Positions 47,197-56,613 of a stretch of DNA of 64,000 nt are shown here, piece after piece. The DNA lies in the NCBI GenBank assembly GCA_903821695.1, contig CAIJLX010000022.1, forward strand, positions 12,406 to 76,405, read 5' to 3'. Below the pieces are notes generated by a model that saw nothing but the letters and a program-made list of their open reading frames with translations, had not been told where the DNA came from and did not search any database. Each line of letters starts with the position of its first letter. The first letter of the stretch is position 1. Both the position numbers and the translations under genes were made by a program. The DNA comes from an uncultured Alphaproteobacteria bacterium (lineage in GTDB: Bacteria > Pseudomonadota > Alphaproteobacteria > Rickettsiales > CAIJLX01).

Positions 47197-47619
47197 ATGC
47201 GTTATACATATACCCTGTTACTCTCGGCAACGTTTGTTTCAACGGCGGCTTTCGCCCAACACCAGTTCCGCGACCAAATGGAGCCTTATCCTTATACGGA
47301 TGAAGCTGCTGTCGCCAATCAGAAACCGCTGATGGTGATCCGCTATAACCAAGAAAACGTCTATTACCAGACACCATTGTTCAATGCAGTCAGCAAAACC
47401 TTACAAGTAAAACCAACCGCTCAGTTCACTTTCGTTTCCAAAGTACCCGTCACTGGCCAGCCGGAAAAAGATAGCCGTGCCGAAGAGCAAGCTCACAGCA
47501 ACTGGCAAAATATTCTGCAAACGCTGAGTGATATCGGCCTTCCCGAAAAACAAATGACCGTGCGCTTTGAGAAATCCAACAAAGTGCTCAATAACGAAAT
47601 CTTGGTTTTCGTTCAGTAA
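47197..47619 (+). CDS. Exported hypothetical protein
   Basis: Sec signal ending AFA; coherent 140-aa ORF with a divergent promoter (TTGCCA-N16-TATAAG). Confidence 0.75.
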   Translation: MRYTYTLLLSATFVSTAAFAQHQFRDQMEPYPYTDEAAVANQKPLMVIRYNQENVYYQTPLFNAVSKTLQVKPTAQFTFVSKVPVTGQPEKDSRAEEQAHSNWQNILQTLSDIGLPEKQMTVRFEKSNKVLNNEILVFVQ

Positions 47620-47633
47620 TTCACAGTATTTAT

Positions 47634-47702
47634 CGTCATTTCGAACGCAGTGAGAAATCTGTGGACGTGTGCTTCAGATTTCTCACTGCGTTCGAAATGA
47701 CG
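47634..47702. repeat. CGTC-type REP-like perfect inverted repeat
   Basis: 28-bp arms CGTCATTTCGAACGCAGTGAGAAATCTG / CAGATTTCTCACTGCGTTCGAAATGACG with a 13-nt spacer. Confidence 0.85.
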
Positions 47703-47740
47703 CGGACTTACATATTTTATGTGGCCTGGTTTCAGGCAAT

Positions 47741-47771
47741 AAAAAAGGGCGCCTTTTGGGCGCCCTTTTTT
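47741..47771. terminator. Bidirectional intrinsic terminator after rpmJ
   Basis: AAAAAAGGGCGCC-N5-GGCGCCCTTTTTT. Confidence 0.88.
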
Positions 47772-47786
47772 GCATTTGCTAAAGCC

Positions 47787-47912
47787 TTAACCTTGGCGCG
47801 CTTTGAAGCGTGGGTTTGCTTTGTTAATTACGTAAATACGGCCTTTGCGACGTACTACGCGGCAGTTCTTGTCGCGCTTTTTTGCAGATTTGAGTGAGCT
47901 TAAAACTTTCAT
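47787..47912 (-). CDS. rpmJ: 50S ribosomal protein L36, zinc-independent type (missed by the ORF track)
   Basis: Manual translation [41 protein letters not shown]; SD AGGAG. Confidence 0.96.
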
Positions 47913-49774
47913 AACCGTATCTCCTGTAGGCGCGGAGTGTTACTCAAGTTTTCCGGCTCTGTCAATTCCTTCTGTTTGAATACCCCATGAATGGTCTTTT
48001 CCCAATGGTGCAGCTTACCGCTAAACAGCTGATATACCGCACGAATACTCGCTATTGTGTGCAAAAACCAATAGAAGGGAAAAATCGGCACGGCGAGCAG
48101 CATATCCCACCATTTATGACGCCATAACACCGCCAGCGCGATAACCAGATGCACACCCATCCCGCCAAACATATTAAAGACCATGAGATTATAGAGCCAA
48201 TCCGGCATCGCATAATCACCGTAATAAGCCAGCAGCGAGAGAGTAATAATCACCGGCGTAATGATAAAAGCGAACGAGGCCGAACCAATAAACAACACAA
48301 ACCCCAGCACCCCCTTAAGCCCCAGCGCCTTCATCGTCCGCTTAGGGTGCCGCAGATGAACAAAGAATGTCTGAATATACCCCTTCACCCAACGCGTACG
48401 CTGCGTAATCCAGTTTTTGAATCTGTTGGGTGCTTCCTCTAGAGTGAGGCTGTCAAGAATCCGGGTTTGATAACCCGCCTCTGCCAGCCGCAAGCCGAGA
48501 TCCGCATCCTCAGTCACGTTATACGGATCCCACGCATGAATGGATTTGAGCACTTGGGTACGGAAGTGATTGCTGGTCCCACCCAACGGCATCGGCAAGC
48601 CTAAACGCTCTAGACCATAGAGCATCGCATCAAACCACATGGCGTATTCGAGCGAGAACATCCGGGTGAGCAAATTATCGCGGCGATTATAATAATTGAG
48701 GCGAGCCTGCACACAGCCAAGTTTCTTGCCATATTCAGCAAACATTTGTGCCGCTTTGCGTAGCTGTTGCGGCTCCGGCACATCCTCCGCATCATAGATG
48801 GTGGCCAAGGTGCCTTTGGCAAACTGCAGAGCATAATTACAGGCCTTCGGTTTGGTTTGCGGCTTGGAATGTGGCACCCGTACGATATGGAAAATACGTT
48901 CCGGTTTTTGAGCGATGAGGTTTTGGATGGTGTCGCTGTCATCCTCCTCCACAATCAATTTCACATCTAGTTTATCCTTCGGATAATCGAGTGCTCGAAT
49001 TGCTTGGATCAATGATTTGACGGTTGAGGCTGGCTCCTTAAAGAGCGGCACGAAAATAGTATAAGTCGGCAAATCTGCATCGGCGATAATGCGGTGGGTT
49101 TGAGGCTTTTCGCTGTAAAAATAACCAGCCCAAAAGATGTGGAACTTAAATAGCATTGCGAGCAAGTAGACGCCGTTGATAACGGCAAGCAGACCTAAGG
49201 TTGAAGCCTCAAAAAAGAATGCGGCAAACAATAGGCAGAGAAATATCGGTAGCCAAAAATTGCGCTTACGCCGCAGCATAAATAGTCGGCGGGCGGAGCG
49301 TTGCGGCTCGAACCGCCAGAGCTGTTGCACGGCATGCTCGCATAAGGCGCTGCCAGCATGAAGCTGCACTTGCTCGTAAATATCGTGCGGCGTAGCGAGT
49401 ACGCATTCGACGGGTTCTTCGAATAGAACCTCTAGTTTTTTTTGTGTGTTTTCTTGTGCGGGTTCGGCCATTGCGATTAACAGCTTTCCCCCTTCCCTGC
49501 GCCAGGGGATTATCTGCATGGGGAGATAGGAATGTGTGTGGTCGGAATCGAATAAGGGATGGTCGCATGGGTGATCGCGTAGGTTTACAAATCGTAGGCC
49601 CAATAGCTGAGCTAGCACAGTGTAGAGTTCGAGGTGATGTAGTGCACCGAGGCTTACTAAGATTTCACCCAAGCGTGCACCGGATTTGGTTTGGATCTCT
49701 AATGCTTGCGTAAGTTGTTGTTCGGTGATGCTTCCGGCGGCAAGCAGCGCTTCGCCCAAACGCACGCCCAGCAT
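47909..49774 (-). CDS. Processive GT2 glycosyltransferase with N-terminal MshEN (c-di-GMP-binding) domain
   Basis: Tandem RLGxxLLxxG...LxxQ motifs; YDAED, TEDADLG, QRTRW; TM helices before and after the catalytic domain. Confidence 0.88.
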
Positions 49775-50583
49775 TAGAAGCGATACCAGATGCTAAAGAG
49801 GCCGCCGGTGCCTTCGCCGGTATTGCGCTCATATACCGTTTGGAACATGCCTACTTGCAGTGACCATTTTGGTGAAAACCAATAGAGGCCGGAAAGCTGA
49901 AGCTTCACCAAATCATAATCAAATGCGTTGCTTAATAATGCGCTACCGCTGCCTGTACCTGCGCCATCAGCGGCGAAGGTGCCTTGCGCTTCACCGATGA
50001 TTTGCCAATGCTCCGCCACCCGATAACCCAATGTGGTTGCCAGCCGCCATTCATCGCCTGGCACTTCGGTGCGTACGCGATAAGCAACTTCATTATTCCA
50101 ATAATGTCTGCCTTGGTTGCCAAAATTACGGCCATAGAGAAGGCGCATTTCATAATCAAGCTGCTCTTGGCCGAGTGTTGGTAAATCGTTTTTATCATAG
50201 CCCCCGGGAAGTTTGACCAACGGCTGGATCGAGATCACGTTTTGGCCATCATTATAAAGCCGGGTGCGGATGAATATTTCGCTATCGGCGAGGTTGGAAT
50301 TGGTTTGCTCATCACCAAACATTTTTTGAGTCACATACTGGAAGCTTGGCGAAATTCCTAAAGTCACCGTATTGGTGAGGCCATATTCGATATAGGGGTT
50401 ATATTCGTATTTTTTATAAGGCTCTTGCGAGGAGGAATTGCCATGTTCATCGACATAGCGATCGCTGGTGTAATAGGTGAAGTTATTGATAACTTGGCCT
50501 TCGCCTTCGTTCAATGTCCAGGCGGCGGCGTGTAGCTCCGTGCAGATCAGCAGCCCTAGCAACAATGCAAGGGCTATCCGCAT
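49774..50583 (-). CDS. Putative outer-membrane beta-barrel protein
   Basis: Signal peptide, alternating aromatic/polar strands (EYGL, YGRNF, LGYRV) and a C-terminal beta-signal ...SIWYRF. Confidence 0.75.
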   Translation of the reverse strand: MRIALALLLGLLICTELHAAAWTLNEGEGQVINNFTYYTSDRYVDEHGNSSSQEPYKKYEYNPYIEYGLTNTVTLGISPSFQYVTQKMFGDEQTNSNLADSEIFIRTRLYNDGQNVISIQPLVKLPGGYDKNDLPTLGQEQLDYEMRLLYGRNFGNQGRHYWNNEVAYRVRTEVPGDEWRLATTLGYRVAEHWQIIGEAQGTFAADGAGTGSGSALLSNAFDYDLVKLQLSGLYWFSPKWSLQVGMFQTVYERNTGEGTGGLFSIWYRF

Positions 50584-50584
50584 C

Positions 50585-51064
50585 CTAGTGCAGCTTTCGT
50601 TCGATGTCTTGGAACGCTTTGGAGAGAATCTCCTCTGCGACTTCTGGGCTCATGCTTTCCAGGATCAGCGTGCGGGCTACTTCCATGGTGATATCCATCG
50701 CATTCGAGCGCAGATCGGTCATCACCGAGGATTCAGCTTGAGCAATTTTTTGCATTGCTAATTCGGTGCGCTTGGTAAGTGCATTTTCGAGCACTTCTTT
50801 TGCTTCTTGTGTGATGCGCTCTGCTTCAAGGCGGGCATGGGCCAGGATTGCTTGCACTTGCTCGAGTGAGTGGCTTTGCTCAGCTTCGTAGCGCGCGAGC
50901 AATGCGGATGCTTCATTTTTCAAACGTGTTGCTTCTTCGAGTTCGCTTTTGATTTTTAAAATACGCGTATCAAGCGACGACAAAATCAATTTTTTGCCGG
51001 TTTTAAACATCAACGCCACGAACATGACAAATGCTAGTGCTACAAAAAACTTCTCATCAAACAT
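50585..51064 (-). CDS. atpF: ATP synthase F0 subunit b
   Basis: N-terminal TM helix, LD.R...I..EL.EA..L..EA coiled coil; position in the operon. Confidence 0.92.
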   Translation of the reverse strand: MFDEKFFVALAFVMFVALMFKTGKKLILSSLDTRILKIKSELEEATRLKNEASALLARYEAEQSHSLEQVQAILAHARLEAERITQEAKEVLENALTKRTELAMQKIAQAESSVMTDLRSNAMDITMEVARTLILESMSPEVAEEILSKAFQDIERKLH

Positions 51065-51551
51065 GTTTCTGCCTCATTTGGTTTGCGACCGCTTTTTCGA
51101 TGATTTCACGCGAAACCTCACGACCGGTTACCTTCTTTAATACTTCCTGTGTAAGCTCGACCGAAACCGGCACCACACGCTCTATTACTTGTTCTTTCGC
51201 TTTATTGATGGCGATTTGTGCATCCGCCATTTTGCGATGGAGCACTTTATCCAGATCGGCATTACGCGCAACGGCAAGAGCTTCCGCTTCTTTCTGAATT
51301 TCAGAAACCACTTCCGCCGCTCTGCTGCGTGCGGATTTGATCTGCACTTCGTTTTGCTGAGCTAGAACGTCCGATTGAATACGCGCCGCTTCCGCTACTT
51401 GCAGATCACCTTCGATCTGCTCACGGCGAGTTAACAGAACGCTGCCCAGGCGTGGCAGTCCCACTCGCGCCATCACAAAATAAAGTGCGGCAAACGAGAG
51501 GGCCAGCCAGAATACCTGGGACAGAATCCAATATGGGTCAAGCTGTGGCAT
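51057..51551 (-). CDS. ATP synthase F0 subunit b'
   Basis: MPQLD....SQ.FWL..SF..LY......LPR pattern. Confidence 0.92.
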   Translation of the reverse strand: MPQLDPYWILSQVFWLALSFAALYFVMARVGLPRLGSVLLTRREQIEGDLQVAEAARIQSDVLAQQNEVQIKSARSRAAEVVSEIQKEAEALAVARNADLDKVLHRKMADAQIAINKAKEQVIERVVPVSVELTQEVLKKVTGREVSREIIEKAVANQMRQKHV

Positions 51552-51569: not shown

Positions 51570-51794
51570 TTATTTGCTTAAAACGATCATCGCGATCACG
51601 AAGGCGAGCAAGCCCATCAATTCCGCGAGAGCTGCACCAACGATACCCCATTTTACCAATTTTGATTCGGTAGCTGGGTTACGAGCAACGCCGTTCAGAA
51701 TTGCTGCGAAGATCATGCCTACGCCGATAGCTGCGCCCGCCATGGTCATTGCGGTTAAGCCTACGCCTACATATTTCAATGCTGATAAATCCAT
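51570..51794 (-). CDS. atpE: ATP synthase F0 subunit c
   Basis: GAAIGVG, RNP and the conserved Glu (ALAEL). Confidence 0.96.
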   Translation of the reverse strand: MDLSALKYVGVGLTAMTMAGAAIGVGMIFAAILNGVARNPATESKLVKWGIVGAALAELMGLLAFVIAMIVLSK

Positions 51795-51880
51795 TTTCTT
51801 TCTCCTTAATTAAAACAAAAAACAAACAATACTATAAAAAAAGCCGCCGAATCATAGCGATGCAATTCGTGATTGCAACC

Positions 51881-52618
51881 CTAATGTAAGTTCACCGCAT
51901 CGTTCAAATAAATACACAATAACATGGTGAAAATATAAGCTTGCAGGCAGGCGATGAAGATCTCAAACCCGATGAACATCACCAGGAATGCCTGTGGAAA
52001 AATACCCCAAACGCCGAGCGTCACTACGAAGCCAGCGAAAATTTTCAGCAATACGTGGCCCGCAATCATGTTCGCAGCAAGACGAATCGAAAGGCTAACT
52101 GGGCGAACGATATAAGAAACAAGCTCAATCGGCACAATCAAAGGCATGATCCAGCTTGGCACCCCCTCTGGCACAAACAAGGCGAAGAAGTGTGTGCCGT
52201 GGCGGACGATACCATAGAGGGTCACGATCAAGAATAAGGTCGCAGCGAGGGCAAAGGTAACTGCGATATGGCTGGTAGCGGTGAAGCTATATGGCGTCAT
52301 CCCCAGAAGGTTACAGAATAAGATGAACATGAAGGCAGAAAAGATCAGCGGGAAGAATTTTAGGCCATCTTTGCCGACGTTTTCCATGATCATACCGGCG
52401 ATGAATTCATAGAGCATTTCGGCAGCACATTGTAAGCGGCCGGGGATTATTGCGCGATAACGGGTCGCACCCATCATGAAGAAGATAATGCAGGAGGTCG
52501 CAAGCACCATGAAGAGTGATGCATTAGTAAAGCTTAGGTCGAAACTGCCCATTTTAAAATCAAAAATGGGATGAATTTCAAACTGCGCAAGCGGGCTGTG
52601 GCCGTGATTTTCTGTCAT
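51881..52618 (-). CDS. atpB: ATP synthase F0 subunit a
   Basis: PGRLQ, NLLGM.P, RPVSLSIRL.ANM.AGH, LQAYIF. Confidence 0.97.
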   Translation of the reverse strand: MTENHGHSPLAQFEIHPIFDFKMGSFDLSFTNASLFMVLATSCIIFFMMGATRYRAIIPGRLQCAAEMLYEFIAGMIMENVGKDGLKFFPLIFSAFMFILFCNLLGMTPYSFTATSHIAVTFALAATLFLIVTLYGIVRHGTHFFALFVPEGVPSWIMPLIVPIELVSYIVRPVSLSIRLAANMIAGHVLLKIFAGFVVTLGVWGIFPQAFLVMFIGFEIFIACLQAYIFTMLLCIYLNDAVNLH

Positions 52619-52639: not shown

Positions 52640-52912
52640 TTAATCGCGCCCTGTATGCCCGATTTCATCCTTCGATGCAAGCCTGAACATATTCCAAAAT
52701 GCAGCGACCATCCCAAGCACAATAAATACCACAAAAAGCCAGGGCTGCGTGCCCAGCCAATCATCCATAAACCAGCCAAACCCACCGCCCACCAACAGGC
52801 CTGCGATAATCTCTGAAAGAAACTGCCAGCCCAGGCTGCGCTCTGCGCGCTGGCTTGATTGATCCAGCTTTAATTTTGCTGCGGCAATTTTCTCTTCTAA
52901 CTCTTTGGTCAT
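52640..52912 (-). CDS. atpI: AtpZ/AtpI family protein
   Basis: G...GWF.D.WLGT.PW......LG..A.F.N; upstream of atpB. Confidence 0.88.
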   Translation of the reverse strand: MTKELEEKIAAAKLKLDQSSQRAERSLGWQFLSEIIAGLLVGGGFGWFMDDWLGTQPWLFVVFIVLGMVAAFWNMFRLASKDEIGHTGRD

Positions 52913-53672: not shown

Positions 53673-54668
53673 ATGCAAAACACCCATTACGATAAAATAA
53701 AGGCCAGCCTCGAGGCCTCCCCCCGCCATTGGTTAGTAACGGGTGCCGCTGGCTTCATCGGCAGCCAGATTGTAGAAACTTTGCTTAAACTTTCGCAGCA
53801 GGTAACCGGTCTTGATAATTTCATGACCGGCACTCCAAAAAATATTGAGGCAGCGAAAAAACTCTCGCCTAAAAATTTCCGCTTTATAGAAGGTGATATC
53901 CGCGATGCCGCCCTCTGCGCTGAAGCAGTGCGTGGAGTTGATATCGTGCTGCATCATGCCGCATTAGGCAGTGTTCCTCATTCCATCTCTGATCCGCAAT
54001 TAGCCCATGCCATCAATGTGGATGGGTTTATGAATATGCTACTGGCAAGCAAAGAAGCAAAAGTGAAGCGCTTCGTCTATGCTAGCTCCTCTGCCTGTTA
54101 TGGCGACAGCACTGCCATCCCGGCCCGCGAAGGCGAGGAGGGTAATTTATTATCCCCTTATGCGGCAACCAAAGCGATTAATGATCTATATGCCCAAGTT
54201 TTCTCGAAGGCTTATAGCTTGCCGACGATTGGCCTGCGCTATTTCAACATTTTTGGTCCACGCCAGGATCCGAATGGACCCTATGCGGCGGTGATTCCGC
54301 TATGGATGAATAATCTGATGCAAGGTGCGCCATGCTTCATTAATGGTGATGGTGAAACCACGAGAGATTTTTGTTATGTTGATAATGCCGTGCAGGCTAA
54401 TATTTTGGCAGGTGTTGCACCACAGGAAGTGACTGGCGAGGTGCTGAATATTGCCGTTGGCACTAGCTCTACTTTGAATGAGTTATATGCCGCGATTCGC
54501 AATGAAATTGGCAGTCCTAAACCTGCCAGCTTCCGCGAGTTTCGTGAGGGGGATGTTCGGCATTCACTGGCCGATATTTCTAAGGCCAAGAAGCAGCTTG
54601 GCTATGCCCCCACCCATCAACTGAATGATGGCATCCGCGAAACGGTGAAGTGGTTTACCTCGCTTTAG
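53673..54668 (+). CDS. UDP-GlcNAc/GalNAc(A) 4-epimerase (WbpP/TviC-like SDR)
   Basis: GAAGFIG, H.AALGSVP.SI.DP, YASSS, SPYAATK, RYFNIFGPRQDPNG.YAAVIP. Confidence 0.88.
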   Translation: MQNTHYDKIKASLEASPRHWLVTGAAGFIGSQIVETLLKLSQQVTGLDNFMTGTPKNIEAAKKLSPKNFRFIEGDIRDAALCAEAVRGVDIVLHHAALGSVPHSISDPQLAHAINVDGFMNMLLASKEAKVKRFVYASSSACYGDSTAIPAREGEEGNLLSPYAATKAINDLYAQVFSKAYSLPTIGLRYFNIFGPRQDPNGPYAAVIPLWMNNLMQGAPCFINGDGETTRDFCYVDNAVQANILAGVAPQEVTGEVLNIAVGTSSTLNELYAAIRNEIGSPKPASFREFREGDVRHSLADISKAKKQLGYAPTHQLNDGIRETVKWFTSL

Positions 54669-56613
54669 TCTCAACCACGTCGTTGAGTATCACCGCACTA
54701 ATCTCTGTCAGCTGGCGTGGATATTGCGAAAGGAAGCGTTTAAACCGAGACGTATTTTCGCCCTGGCGGATCACCATAAAAATAGTTCCTGCAAACTCCA
54801 ACAATTGAAGGTCAGGAAGTGTTGGGCAATCGATGATAACGAGATCAAATTCTTCAGACAAAATATGCATGAGCGATTTCAATTTTTCTTGATCTTGCAA
54901 GAGATCATAATTTGCAGCTTCCGTGCCCGACGGAATAAACCACAGTTTCTCATCCACTGGATTCGCGAGCACTTGCTCAAGCGTTGCCTTACCCGCAATC
55001 AAATCCGAAAATCCTGGCACCTTGAGTGCAGAGAAATTTAGATGCAAAGAACCTTTCAGAATATCTCCATCAATCAACAAAACACGCTTTTTCTCGGATG
55101 CCAGAAGCGAGAAATTTGCAGCAAGAAAGGATTTACCCTGCTTCTCATGATGACTCGTAAACAGCAAAATATTATTGTGTGCACCGCTGGTAATATCATC
55201 AAGAATGGTCTTCAAGTTTCTTAATACTAATGCAGCATTATCAGTTACATCCATCAGATAATTATTCATACCCAAAGCTTTGCTTTTTTTCTCCGCCGAG
55301 TCACTATGCGGGATAGATGCAATGACAGGCAATTTAGTGACCTTCTTCAGCATTTCAGGATTGCGAATGTTGCGCAATCGAATATTGCCGAACAGTGTAA
55401 AGCATAGGCACAAAAACACGCCACCTACTCCACCAAGCACAGCAGCAATAGTAATCTTCATCCAATCGATCGTTTTCTCGATCACGGAAGGGCTGATGAC
55501 ATGTGCTTCACTCTTAATGATTTCACGCGAGAGCCTATTAATTTCAGCAGTGCTATCGAGGAATAATTGGCGGACAATAATGACTTCATCATTGAGCTGA
55601 TAAAACCGACGCTCGGCATCCGGCAATTTTACTATTTCAGGCTCAATACTATTGAGCTGTTTTTTGTAAGAGTCGATCTGTTCTGTGAATCCCAGCACCA
55701 CAGGATCTTGCGGTGCGTGGGTTGCAAGCAGTTCTGTTTTTCCTGATTCGAGATCACCGACTTTACTGCCTAAACCAGCAGCAAGTTGGATGAGCTCTAA
55801 TGTCTCCTCGGAAAAGGTTGATGTATCCTCTCTCGCGAGCGCTTCTTTTGCAACTTTTAATTGCGCTTGAATCTCTTTATTTTTAGCCCGCAAATTTGCC
55901 AATACATCTGCACGATTGCGGATGGTATTTTCGAGCGACTTGTCAACATAGACACCCATCAAGGTATCAAGAAAGTGTTTTGCAAATTCTGGTTCTTGAG
56001 CTGCAAAATGCAGCTCAATGCTGCTATCATTTATTTTGATGGCGCGGATATTTTTCTGTATCGTTTGCAGATAGGTTTCGGGTGACAATGGTGTAATAAT
56101 AAATTCCTCGCCCGCACCTGCTGCTAGGCTTGCCACCTTAATAGCAAAACCATTTTCTTTTACTTCTTCACCACCTGCTTTTCCTTGCAGGAGTGCCTTG
56201 CCGTAGGAATCATAGAGCACAAAGATTTCGTCAGCCTCCATCCGCAACTTAAACGGACTTTCCCAATAGGCTTTAGGTACCGTAAATTGCTCAAGCTCTA
56301 GGCTTAACATATCCATCCCCGTCAGCTGCTCCAACAAATGTGTGTTGTGCGCGACAAAGGCAGAAACACCCCCGGTGCTTTTCGCGATGGCTTCGGTAAG
56401 GTTTTGGTTGGAAAGGATAAGCCGCATAGCTGCATCAGCTGAAATTTGTGGCTCAATTTGCAGCTGGCCTCTGGCGGTGTTAATAACGGGGATACCAACA
56501 CTTCCAAGCACCGCTGTAACAACGCTTATAATAATCAGCAATAGATACCACCATTTGCCCCGATTCGGCGTTGGGGTAGTCGTATGTGAAAAAGGGGAGA
56601 ATCTTTGCTGCAT
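54655..56613 (-). CDS. Wzc-like polysaccharide co-polymerase/BY-kinase, degenerate
   Basis: Two TM helices, periplasmic coiled coil (HDP-like ...PQDPVV), Walker-like QGKS, LLIDGD and IIDCP; no C-terminal Tyr cluster. Confidence 0.8.
   Translation of the reverse strand: MQQRFSPFSHTTTPTPNRGKWWYLLLIIISVVTAVLGSVGIPVINTARGQLQIEPQISADAAMRLILSNQNLTEAIAKSTGGVSAFVAHNTHLLEQLTGMDMLSLELEQFTVPKAYWESPFKLRMEADEIFVLYDSYGKALLQGKAGGEEVKENGFAIKVASLAAGAGEEFIITPLSPETYLQTIQKNIRAIKINDSSIELHFAAQEPEFAKHFLDTLMGVYVDKSLENTIRNRADVLANLRAKNKEIQAQLKVAKEALAREDTSTFSEETLELIQLAAGLGSKVGDLESGKTELLATHAPQDPVVLGFTEQIDSYKKQLNSIEPEIVKLPDAERRFYQLNDEVIIVRQLFLDSTAEINRLSREIIKSEAHVISPSVIEKTIDWMKITIAAVLGGVGGVFLCLCFTLFGNIRLRNIRNPEMLKKVTKLPVIASIPHSDSAEKKSKALGMNNYLMDVTDNAALVLRNLKTILDDITSGAHNNILLFTSHHEKQGKSFLAANFSLLASEKKRVLLIDGDILKGSLHLNFSALKVPGFSDLIAGKATLEQVLANPVDEKLWFIPSGTEAANYDLLQDQEKLKSLMHILSEEFDLVIIDCPTLPDLQLLEFAGTIFMVIRQGENTSRFKRFLSQYPRQLTEISAVILNDVVETKAR

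Follow-up and report, generated by a model that had tools for sequence, protein, structure and literature searches.

What might a predicted outer-membrane beta-barrel and a glycosyltransferase be doing side by side between atpF and rpmJ, at the end of an operon for the F0 part of ATP synthase? This question is raised by a 64,000-nucleotide (nt) stretch of DNA (the window) from an uncultured alphaproteobacterium whose genome (2.1 Mb, 48% GC) is detected in lake-water metagenomes. According to the list of open reading frames (ORFs) and the sequence, the minus strand of the window carries atpI-atpB-atpE-atpF'-atpF, an ORF of 269 amino acids (aa), an ORF of 621 aa and rpmJ, in that order. We consider it probable that the two ORFs, taken as a whole, are best explained as a reduced xagA-xagB-type module for synthase-dependent exopolysaccharide (EPS). 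The features of the pair are as follows.

49774..50583, minus strand: predicted outer-membrane beta-barrel, xagA-like, 269 aa (AlphaFold2 (AF2) model, Foldseek, names of homologues)
47909..49774, minus strand: xagB-like synthase, 621 aa (Pfam glycosyltransferase family 2 (GT2) and PF05157, NF053729, AF2, Foldseek)
49604..49762, minus strand: tandem MshEN motif of 53 residues, 5-57 of the 621-aa protein (NF053729, alignment)
48380..49069, minus strand: GT-A catalytic core with DAED, TED and QRTRW (PF13641, residues 236-465, E 1e-26)

A first-pass annotation of this DNA had bounded the pair at 47909-50583, which is exact, and had proposed a minimal synthase/barrel system for EPS. The two-gene pairing holds. 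The notion of a new kind of system does not, because homologues of both proteins already carry the names XagA and XagB, and the pair appears instead to be a trimmed member of the known xagA/xagB module. Homologues of the synthase are named 'glycosyltransferase XagB' by JGI/KEGG (P0073, P0074, P0116 and P0125) or 'xagB' in an NCBI record (P0089), and those bearing the name are 42-45% identical to it over 95-96% of the query (E 1e-147 to 1e-153). JGI gives the name 'protein XagA' to five homologues of the barrel (P0315, P0327, P0363, P0374 and P0378). Their matches to the barrel profile have E values of 1e-54 to 1e-61 and cover 92-99% of the query at 27-32% identity. Both families are large: a single search returned at least 7,900 matches to the synthase, and clustering of the barrel family at 50% identity gives 2,375 clusters, counted at E values up to 1e-3.

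In Xanthomonas, xagABC(D) is a named and genetically characterised biofilm-EPS operon, and the raised biofilm of an rpfG mutant of X. oryzae pv. oryzicola needs both xagA and xagB (PMC3609779). Roelofs et al. placed xagABC among the EPS operons that are regulated by cyclic di-GMP (c-di-GMP) while 'lacking a known receptor' (PMC4624772). The pair in the window has the same A-before-B order as the operons of X. campestris pv. campestris and X. oryzae pv. oryzicola and, as predicted here, their tie to c-di-GMP-regulated biofilm. It differs in consisting of two genes only, without counterparts of xagC or xagD, and in lying inside the atp F0-rpmJ operon, whereas the Xanthomonas genes form a regulated operon of their own.

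The 621-aa protein is predicted to be a membrane-embedded, processive GT2 with a channel formed by its own transmembrane and interface helices, of the BcsA/hyaluronan synthase (HAS) type. Pfam recognises GT2 families over residues 236-465 together with MshEN (PF05157), and the overall layout is MshEN (1-155), a transmembrane hairpin (168-220), the GT2 catalytic domain (236-465) and interface/transmembrane helices (452-584). Residues D279, DAED (328-331), TED (421-423) and QRTRW (458-462) are invariant in 54 homologues; the D/D/TED/QxxRW signature read in the first pass is thus borne out, as are the transmembrane helices, which appear in the AF2 model. This model was built with the 54 homologues (pLDDT 90.8, pTM 0.90) and comprises, in order, four helices (6-58), an alpha/beta unit reaching residue 126, a long helix (129-155), the transmembrane hairpin, the GT-A domain and interface/transmembrane helices up to residue 584. 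A PDB sequence search with phmmer matched residues 202-524 to BcsA (E 8e-15) and residues 3-114 to the N-domain of MshE (5htl, E 4e-11), as well as to several PilB/PilF N-domains. With the model as query, Foldseek returned BcsA (E 6e-15) and Xenopus HAS1 (E 1e-14), with a TM-score of 0.58 normalised by target length. Its matches include hyaluronan synthases of vertebrates and a Chlorella virus, chitin synthases and plant CesA. BcsA, hyaluronan synthases, chitin synthases and CesA are all channel-forming processive synthases.

Membership of the better-known synthase families was examined and rejected. The protein is not a BcsA cellulose synthase: it has no PilZ match and scores 84.8 against 699 for TIGR03030 and 65.5 against 992 for NF008558. 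It is likewise not a PgaC, for which its score falls far below the cut-off. Nevertheless, the BcsA-BcsB-BcsC system resembles the pair in its GT-A core (D, DxD, TED, QxxRW) and integral transmembrane channel, and BcsA is the best PDB match by both sequence and fold. BcsA is gated by c-di-GMP, and the window synthase may be gated similarly; its putative sensor, however, is an N-terminal MshEN domain in place of PilZ, and there is no BcsB. BcsC has 16 strands and tetratricopeptide repeats (TPRs), whereas the outer-membrane part in the window has a predicted 12 strands and no TPR.

The first pass had drawn a parallel to NfrB of Escherichia coli, which is activated by c-di-GMP via MshEN (PMC8669469). 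Part of this parallel survives. Like NfrB-NfrA-YbcH (PMC8669469, PMC8669472), the pair combines a predicted processive GT2 fused to an MshEN domain with a putative outer-membrane partner. The synthase nonetheless falls outside the NfrB family, as it scores 32.1 bits against a cut-off of 1170 for NF008411, with a match on the MshEN part only, and has the reverse domain order: MshEN is C-terminal in NfrB (GT2, two transmembrane helices, MshEN) and N-terminal in the window synthase. NfrA, moreover, is large and joins TPRs to a barrel, whereas the barrel in the window is bare at 269 aa.

We compared the MshEN domain, the putative sensor of this module, with the MshE domain position by position. 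Residues 5-28 and 34-57 form two 24-residue motifs with a spacer of 5 residues (TKSGA), as the first pass had it, and NF053729 ('c-di-GMP_motif') matches residues 5-56 with 57.7 bits against a cut-off of 38. The motif is defined as RLGxx(L)(V/I)xxG(I/F)(L/V)xxxxLxxxLxxQ, occurring twice with a 5-residue spacer. In the AF2 model, this region has helices at 6-12, 18-31, 35-41 and 47-58, then strands at 88-94, 97-102 and 122-126 with helices, at pLDDT >90. The model therefore reproduces the published architecture of MshEN, with its four-helix MshEN_N bundle and, after it, the alpha/beta MshEN_C subdomain. Of the 15 contact or conserved structural positions named for MshE (PMC5013675), 13 are matched, and Asp12 is exchanged for Glu. 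The protein retains counterparts of MshE R9, L10, G11, G18, L25, L29, Q32, R38, L39, G40, G47, L54 and L58; it departs from the canonical motif with Ser15 at the position of MshE Ile19 and with Leu57 at that of Gln61 (Gln56 adjoins).

These contact residues are strongly conserved across the synthase family. Scored per alignment column in the 54 sequences, the equivalents of MshE G11, G40 and G47 are Gly in 51, 51 and 52 homologues, that of Q32 is Gln in 50 and that of L29 is Leu in 48. The R9 position holds R, K or P in 40 of the 54, and the Q61 position is variable. The 'relaxed' regular expression of Wang et al. is unmatched by the window protein and by most homologues, owing to position 11; motif calls in relatives were therefore read by eye, as a looser expression was still too strict. 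Mutations in MshE reduce affinity >10-fold for hydrophobic contacts and <5-fold for polar residues, and fusions of MshEN to glycosyltransferases were noted in the same study (PMC5013675). Since the contact residues are kept and conserved, and since changes at polar residues cost MshE less than 5-fold, we judge it likely that the MshEN domain of the synthase binds c-di-GMP. The source genome has four GGDEF matches, two of them strong, and c-di-GMP can therefore be made in this organism.

For the 269-aa protein, an outer-membrane beta-barrel is the high-confidence prediction. The sequence opens with a Sec signal peptide (MRIALALLLGLLICTELHA before AAW) and ends in ...WYRF. Its mature N-terminus is conserved (AAAWT...G.GQ), with A21, W22 and Q30 invariant. 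Direct Pfam and PDB sequence searches with the protein gave no match. The AF2 model, built with 18 homologues, is all-beta (pLDDT 86.9, pTM 0.80), in agreement with the barrel call of the first pass, and merging its DSSP segments points to 12 strands. The top Foldseek match is 4RL8, the COG4313 channel Pput2725 (TM-score 0.75, E 5e-10), with FapF next. PF13557 (Phenol_MetA_deg), the Pfam family of COG4313, is matched by 4 of the 18 close homologues (best E 2e-7) and not by the window protein. The barrel appears to be a distant, superfamily-level relative of the COG4313 channels. Its predicted 12-stranded fold, its length of about 270 residues and its short N-terminal segment resemble those of these channels and of FapF; it differs in sequence (about 12% identity), and those proteins are implicated in uptake of hydrophobics or amyloid secretion and have no glycosyltransferase partner. 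The structure 4RL8 is a 12-stranded barrel in which the N-terminal 14 residues plug a channel that is 10-12 Å wide when unplugged (PMC4493636).

The barrel and the synthase co-occur in relatives of the source organism. We surveyed 41 sampled relatives from the same GTDB order, nearly all from different families. The barrel is found in 22 of the 41, and all 22 also encode the synthase, directly downstream in 19 and with one gene between in G038. The first-pass proposal that the two genes co-occur is therefore supported, also by other alphaproteobacterial orders and a gammaproteobacterium (below). A tblastn map of 20 relatives' loci recovered the block dsbA-atpI-B-E-F'-F-barrel-GT2-rpmJ in 15, either whole or in recognisable part; a convergent small gene (orf140) often comes next. 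Two more public contigs from metagenome-assembled genomes (MAGs) carry the full block (L037) or barrel-GT2-rpmJ at a contig end (L038). Among the loci examined, the arrangement atpF-barrel-GT2-rpmJ occurs in 16 relatives, each a different family-level lineage of the order. Thus, the link to the F0 operon that the first pass drew is correct as to position, which is an old, order-wide synteny and no peculiarity of the source genome.

Departures from this arrangement were also found. G029 has rpmJ 87 nt after atpF, a clean empty site (L069, G029:C3, 3560-4227), and neither barrel nor synthase was found anywhere in this genome, which has 10 GGDEF genes. The barrel is kept after atpF with the synthase elsewhere in G013 and G008, and the pair is located away from atp in G027 and G038. 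G024, an 85%-complete MAG, has two barrel-synthase pairs on separate short contigs (C82 and C108), which could reflect duplication or a strain mix. In G035 (L061, 4948-5976) and G032 (L059, 4965-5639), ORFs of 342 and 224 aa occupy the barrel slot between atpF and the synthase. They have no match to the barrel profile, and their N-termini (SPW...G) resemble that of the barrel; they may be very divergent barrels.

Across the class, the barrel is found in 31 of 401 genomes. We fetched 20 of these loci, one of which comes from the window's order. Among the other 19, the synthase lies within 9 kb in 11 and atp genes are adjacent in none. Four loci from other alphaproteobacterial orders (L043, L054, L048 and the JGI contig L074) have a five-gene cluster that encodes, in this order, a BcsB-like protein (700-816 aa), XagB, a membrane protein of 488-673 aa without Pfam match ('X'), a REC-GGDEF protein (320-341 aa) and XagA. 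P0363, one of the barrels named XagA, sits in such a cluster, and XagA is the name that the barrel of L074 carries. A TPR protein follows the cluster in L054, and a GH113 gene lies opposite in L074. Stalk-forming Fe(II) oxidisers have 'xag-like' or sfz-sfb clusters composed of bcsB-like, xagB, xagC and xagD genes (PMC4643136; bioRxiv 10.1101/2021.03.12.435129). The five-gene cluster is this 'bcsB-xagB-xagC-xagD' type with the barrel added. The window pair has the same MshEN-GT2 synthase family as both kinds of cluster and the same barrel family as the alphaproteobacterial one. By comparison, both kinds add a BcsB-like periplasmic subunit and a membrane protein of about 500 aa, and the alphaproteobacterial ones also a REC-GGDEF cyclase. 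A tblastn search of the whole source genome found no homologue of the BcsB-like protein or of 'X', so the two-gene form is truly reduced; its GGDEF proteins resemble the cyclase of the cluster chiefly in the receiver domain (tblastn). The gammaproteobacterial case is plasmid pPBSW1 of Pseudoalteromonas sp. Bsw20308 (L073, 8914-12679), where a barrel homologue annotated as 'hypothetical protein' (profile E 4e-33) lies directly upstream of a GT2. That GT2 is a membrane protein of 502 aa without MshEN, and a 'GT87 family' membrane protein follows. Members of the barrel family therefore have GT2 partners of at least two kinds.

The F0 genes and rpmJ that enclose the pair, together with the end of the operon, are listed here.

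52640..52912, minus strand: atpI-like small membrane protein, gene 1 of the F0 operon (PF09527 ATPase_gene1, E 3.6e-14); its place upstream of atpB is conserved in relatives
51881..52618, minus strand: atpB, F0 subunit a (PF00119, E 5e-65)
51570..51794, minus strand: atpE, F0 subunit c (PF00137, E 1e-11)
51057..51551, minus strand: atpF', F0 subunit b' (PF00430, E 7e-15)
50585..51064, minus strand: atpF, F0 subunit b, with stop codon TAG (PF00430, E 7e-20)
47787..47912, minus strand: rpmJ, type B ribosomal protein L36 (NF002021, 88 bits against a cut-off of 70; PF00444)
47736..47772, minus strand: intrinsic terminator after rpmJ, GGGCGCC-CAAAA-GGCGCCC then T6 (sequence and RNA folding)

The junctions around the pair are tight. 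The stop codon of atpF is separated by 1 nt from the start of the barrel gene (...CAC TAG G ATG CGG...), and the last A of the barrel's TAA is the first A of the synthase ATG (...TTC TAATG CTG...). The minus-strand sequence confirms both as the first pass reported them. The TGA of the synthase overlaps the ATG of rpmJ (ATGA), read as ...TTATGAAA..., and rpmJ has a Shine-Dalgarno sequence, AGGAGA, 8 nt 5' of its ATG. The claim that no terminator precedes the end of rpmJ is upheld as well. One strong terminator follows rpmJ, with a 7-bp, all-GC hairpin and a T-run at about 47742-47770 (the 61-nt stretch folds at -24.2 kcal/mol, z -2.9) that can be read as a terminator on both strands. It was missed by our consensus scan for promoters and terminators and was checked by folding instead. 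Inside the operon the scan found only weak terminator-like matches (for example, 48113-48090), and on the minus strand it found no sigma-70-like promoter between atpF and rpmJ. The barrel and synthase genes are probably transcribed constitutively with the F0 genes, because their translation appears to be coupled and neither a sigma-70-like promoter nor an internal terminator came to light. Among sequencing runs, the locus was found only in DNA runs from lake-water metagenomes and in no RNA run.

Several other elements were noted in the neighbourhood. The atpB-atpE spacer (51844-51860, minus strand) has a terminator-like hairpin with a T7 run, which may act as an attenuator and so adjust the ratios of the subunits. 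A perfect 22-bp inverted repeat (TTTCGAACGCAGTGAGAAATCT) with a loop of 15 nt lies at 47639-47697, shortly after the terminator of rpmJ. Its arm occurs in 19 copies on 12 contigs of the genome (at most 3 mismatches, both strands); the palindrome therefore resembles repetitive extragenic palindromic (REP) elements or miniature inverted-repeat transposable elements (MITEs). The convergent gene orf140 (47197-47619, plus strand) encodes 140 aa with a signal peptide and no family match, and it keeps its position in at least nine family-level relatives; it is a conserved small secreted protein without assigned function. Beyond the dsbA-like gene, 53673-56613 encodes a TviC/WbpP-like UDP-sugar 4-epimerase (337 bits for NF011728, below that model's cut-off) and a Wzc-like tyrosine autokinase. 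These two belong to a separate Wzy-type polysaccharide locus, and the source genome therefore has at least two EPS routes.

The module is eroded in part of the order. ATP/ADP translocase (PF03219) gives strong matches in 8 of the 41 relatives, and TLC translocases number up to five in some members of the order. The figures for decay are raw counts in which kinship is ignored. In all eight translocase-bearing relatives, the barrel was undetectable by tblastn. Individual genomes illustrate various states of decay. G037 has a divergent barrel (profile E 2e-17) adjoining a synthase without MshEN, G036 a barrel beside a 473-aa synthase entirely without MshEN, and G028 a synthase with a degenerate N-terminus that follows atpF directly, with no barrel. 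No MshEN motif is recognisable in G015 and G025, and the synthases of G026 and G011 are pseudogenes. Overall, barrel and/or MshEN are lost or degraded in lineages with ATP/ADP translocases, and the module is intact in lineages without them. Given that MshEN and the barrel are lost beside a retained GT2, lineages can do without the sensor and the pore more readily than without the catalytic core.

We propose that such a module would work as follows. The XagB-like protein would sit in the inner membrane, where its cytoplasmic GT-A domain would polymerise a nucleotide-sugar; as with BcsA and hyaluronan synthase, the polymer would be translocated through a channel built from the protein's own transmembrane and interface helices. 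The N-terminal MshEN domain, joined to the catalytic domain by the long helix and the transmembrane hairpin, would be the c-di-GMP receptor. By analogy with NfrB and BcsA, c-di-GMP from a genome-encoded GGDEF protein may switch the synthase on allosterically. At the outer membrane, the nascent chain would then pass through, or dock at, the XagA-like 12-stranded barrel of COG4313 type. The first pass took the product to be a glucan-like adhesin or phage receptor, which it may conceivably be. Both genes would be expressed constitutively along with rpmJ and the F0 genes, which leaves control to the post-translational level. This lineage's module would work without a BcsB-like subunit, the membrane protein of about 500 aa or a dedicated REC-GGDEF cyclase.

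Several observations weigh against this interpretation. Orthology to the Xanthomonas proteins is taken from the JGI/KEGG names of homologues and not from direct alignment, co-transcription is read from the sequence only, and we found no biochemical characterisation of any XagB with an N-terminal MshEN in the literature. The barrel lacks the TPR or periplasmic scaffold of BcsC, PgaA, AlgK/E and NfrA, so the chain would have to cross the periplasm without one. The COG4313 channels, furthermore, have a plugged lumen and are proposed to take up hydrophobic molecules (PMC4493636). In G007 (L028, 7189-7970) and G016 (L029, 7142-7628), the barrel is broken by a stop or frameshift next to an intact MshEN-GT2, which suggests that the barrel is dispensable or was recently lost. 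G003, G028 and G015 keep the GT2 without a detectable barrel. Because such relatives retain the GT2, the synthase can persist without the barrel. Finally, Ser15 in motif 1 is one of the changes listed for XpsE, a protein with the MshEN fold that does not bind c-di-GMP and that is altered at the Ile19 position among others (PMC5013675), and motif 2 lacks the second Gln (Leu57).

Four other explanations can be built on such points, and none of them is favoured by the comparative data. The barrel might not be an export pore at all and might instead act as a COG4313-type channel for hydrophobic or amphipathic molecules or as an anchor or acceptor for the polymer, with the glycan remaining periplasmic or cell-bound or leaving by another way. 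Its best structural match is the plugged channel just mentioned, its N-terminal segment is conserved with the three invariant residues, it has no TPR or periplasmic domain, and intact GT2 genes stand without it or beside its pseudogene in G003, G028, G007 and G016. Linear polymers or oligosaccharides do, however, pass through 12-stranded barrels such as FapF, NanC and KdgM. In different orders, and in two classes, the GT2 also stays next to the barrel with their gene order unchanged although the other neighbours vary, and the xagA and xagB mutants of X. oryzae share the same biofilm phenotype (PMC3609779). We regard this alternative as unlikely, albeit the most serious of the four. Somewhat fainter, and likewise unlikely, is the prospect that the MshEN domain no longer binds c-di-GMP and serves as a structural or dimerisation module or responds to another ligand or partner, which would leave the synthase constitutive or controlled otherwise. 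Apart from the two substitutions (Ser15 for Ile19, Leu57 for Gln61) and the precedent of XpsE for loss of binding (PMC5013675), it draws on relatives in which MshEN is lost or degraded and the GT2 kept (G036, G028, G037, G015 and G025) and on the lack of a dedicated cyclase in the operon. However, the 13 matching positions of 15, the Glu in place of Asp12, the NF053729 score above cut-off and the conservation of contact residues across the family all point to a binding domain; in MshE, polar-residue mutations cost less than 5-fold in affinity (PMC5013675). GGDEF proteins are encoded elsewhere in the source genome, and a REC-GGDEF gene lies within the fuller clusters.

A role for the GT2 in glycosylating a lipid (glucosyl-diacylglycerol or GT21-type), by which the membrane would be remodelled and no exopolymer made, strikes us as very improbable. 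It would fit a weak PF13506 (Glyco_transf_21) match of 22.7 bits in the 621-aa protein, the automatic annotation of an iron-oxidiser XagB-like protein as a beta-monoglucosyldiacylglycerol synthase (PMC4643136) and the persistence of the GT2 core in reduced, host-associated lineages. QxxRW and TED are invariant, however; both the C-terminal transmembrane/interface helices and the Foldseek matches correspond to processive synthases that form a channel, and the partner of the gene is an outer-membrane barrel, joined in other genomes by a BcsB-like subunit. We give hardly any credence to a functional tie to ATP synthase (in assembly, membrane environment or energy coupling) beyond gene order, and we rejected it. 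The order atpF-barrel-GT2-rpmJ does recur in the loci of 16 relatives with tight or overlapping junctions. Yet outside the order the pair is never beside atp genes among the loci fetched, and inside it the pair lies elsewhere (G027 and G038) or is absent, with atpF followed by rpmJ (G029). The flanking dsbA and orf140 are equally syntenic; general gene-order conservation therefore suffices to account for the atp position.

The reading of the pair as a reduced xagA-xagB module thus remains the one we prefer. A more far-reaching proposal, which we put forward tentatively and with considerable doubt, is that it would be the smallest complete trans-envelope system known for synthase-dependent polysaccharide secretion, made up of an MshEN-gated synthase-translocase and a bare 12-stranded barrel, with no BcsB, TPR or dedicated cyclase. 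It might have been fixed early between atpF and rpmJ in this Rickettsiales-like order, be expressed constitutively and controlled by c-di-GMP only, and have been dismantled stepwise (MshEN and/or barrel first, GT2 core last) at each turn to energy parasitism.

The new points are the minimal composition of the module, its order-wide position between atpF and rpmJ, and its erosion in translocase-bearing lineages. Synthases of the xag type are very common, and they are biochemically uncharacterised in the literature that we found. This natural pair of proteins offers the simplest setting for two questions: whether an N-terminal MshEN domain gates a processive GT2, and whether a 12-stranded barrel without a TPR scaffold exports a glycan. 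For ATP synthase, the location of the module within the atp operon is probably of no consequence. Because the module is intact in lineages without translocases and eroded in those with them, it may serve as a marker for the loss of surface-attached, c-di-GMP-controlled behaviour in the move to host dependence within this Rickettsiales-like order.

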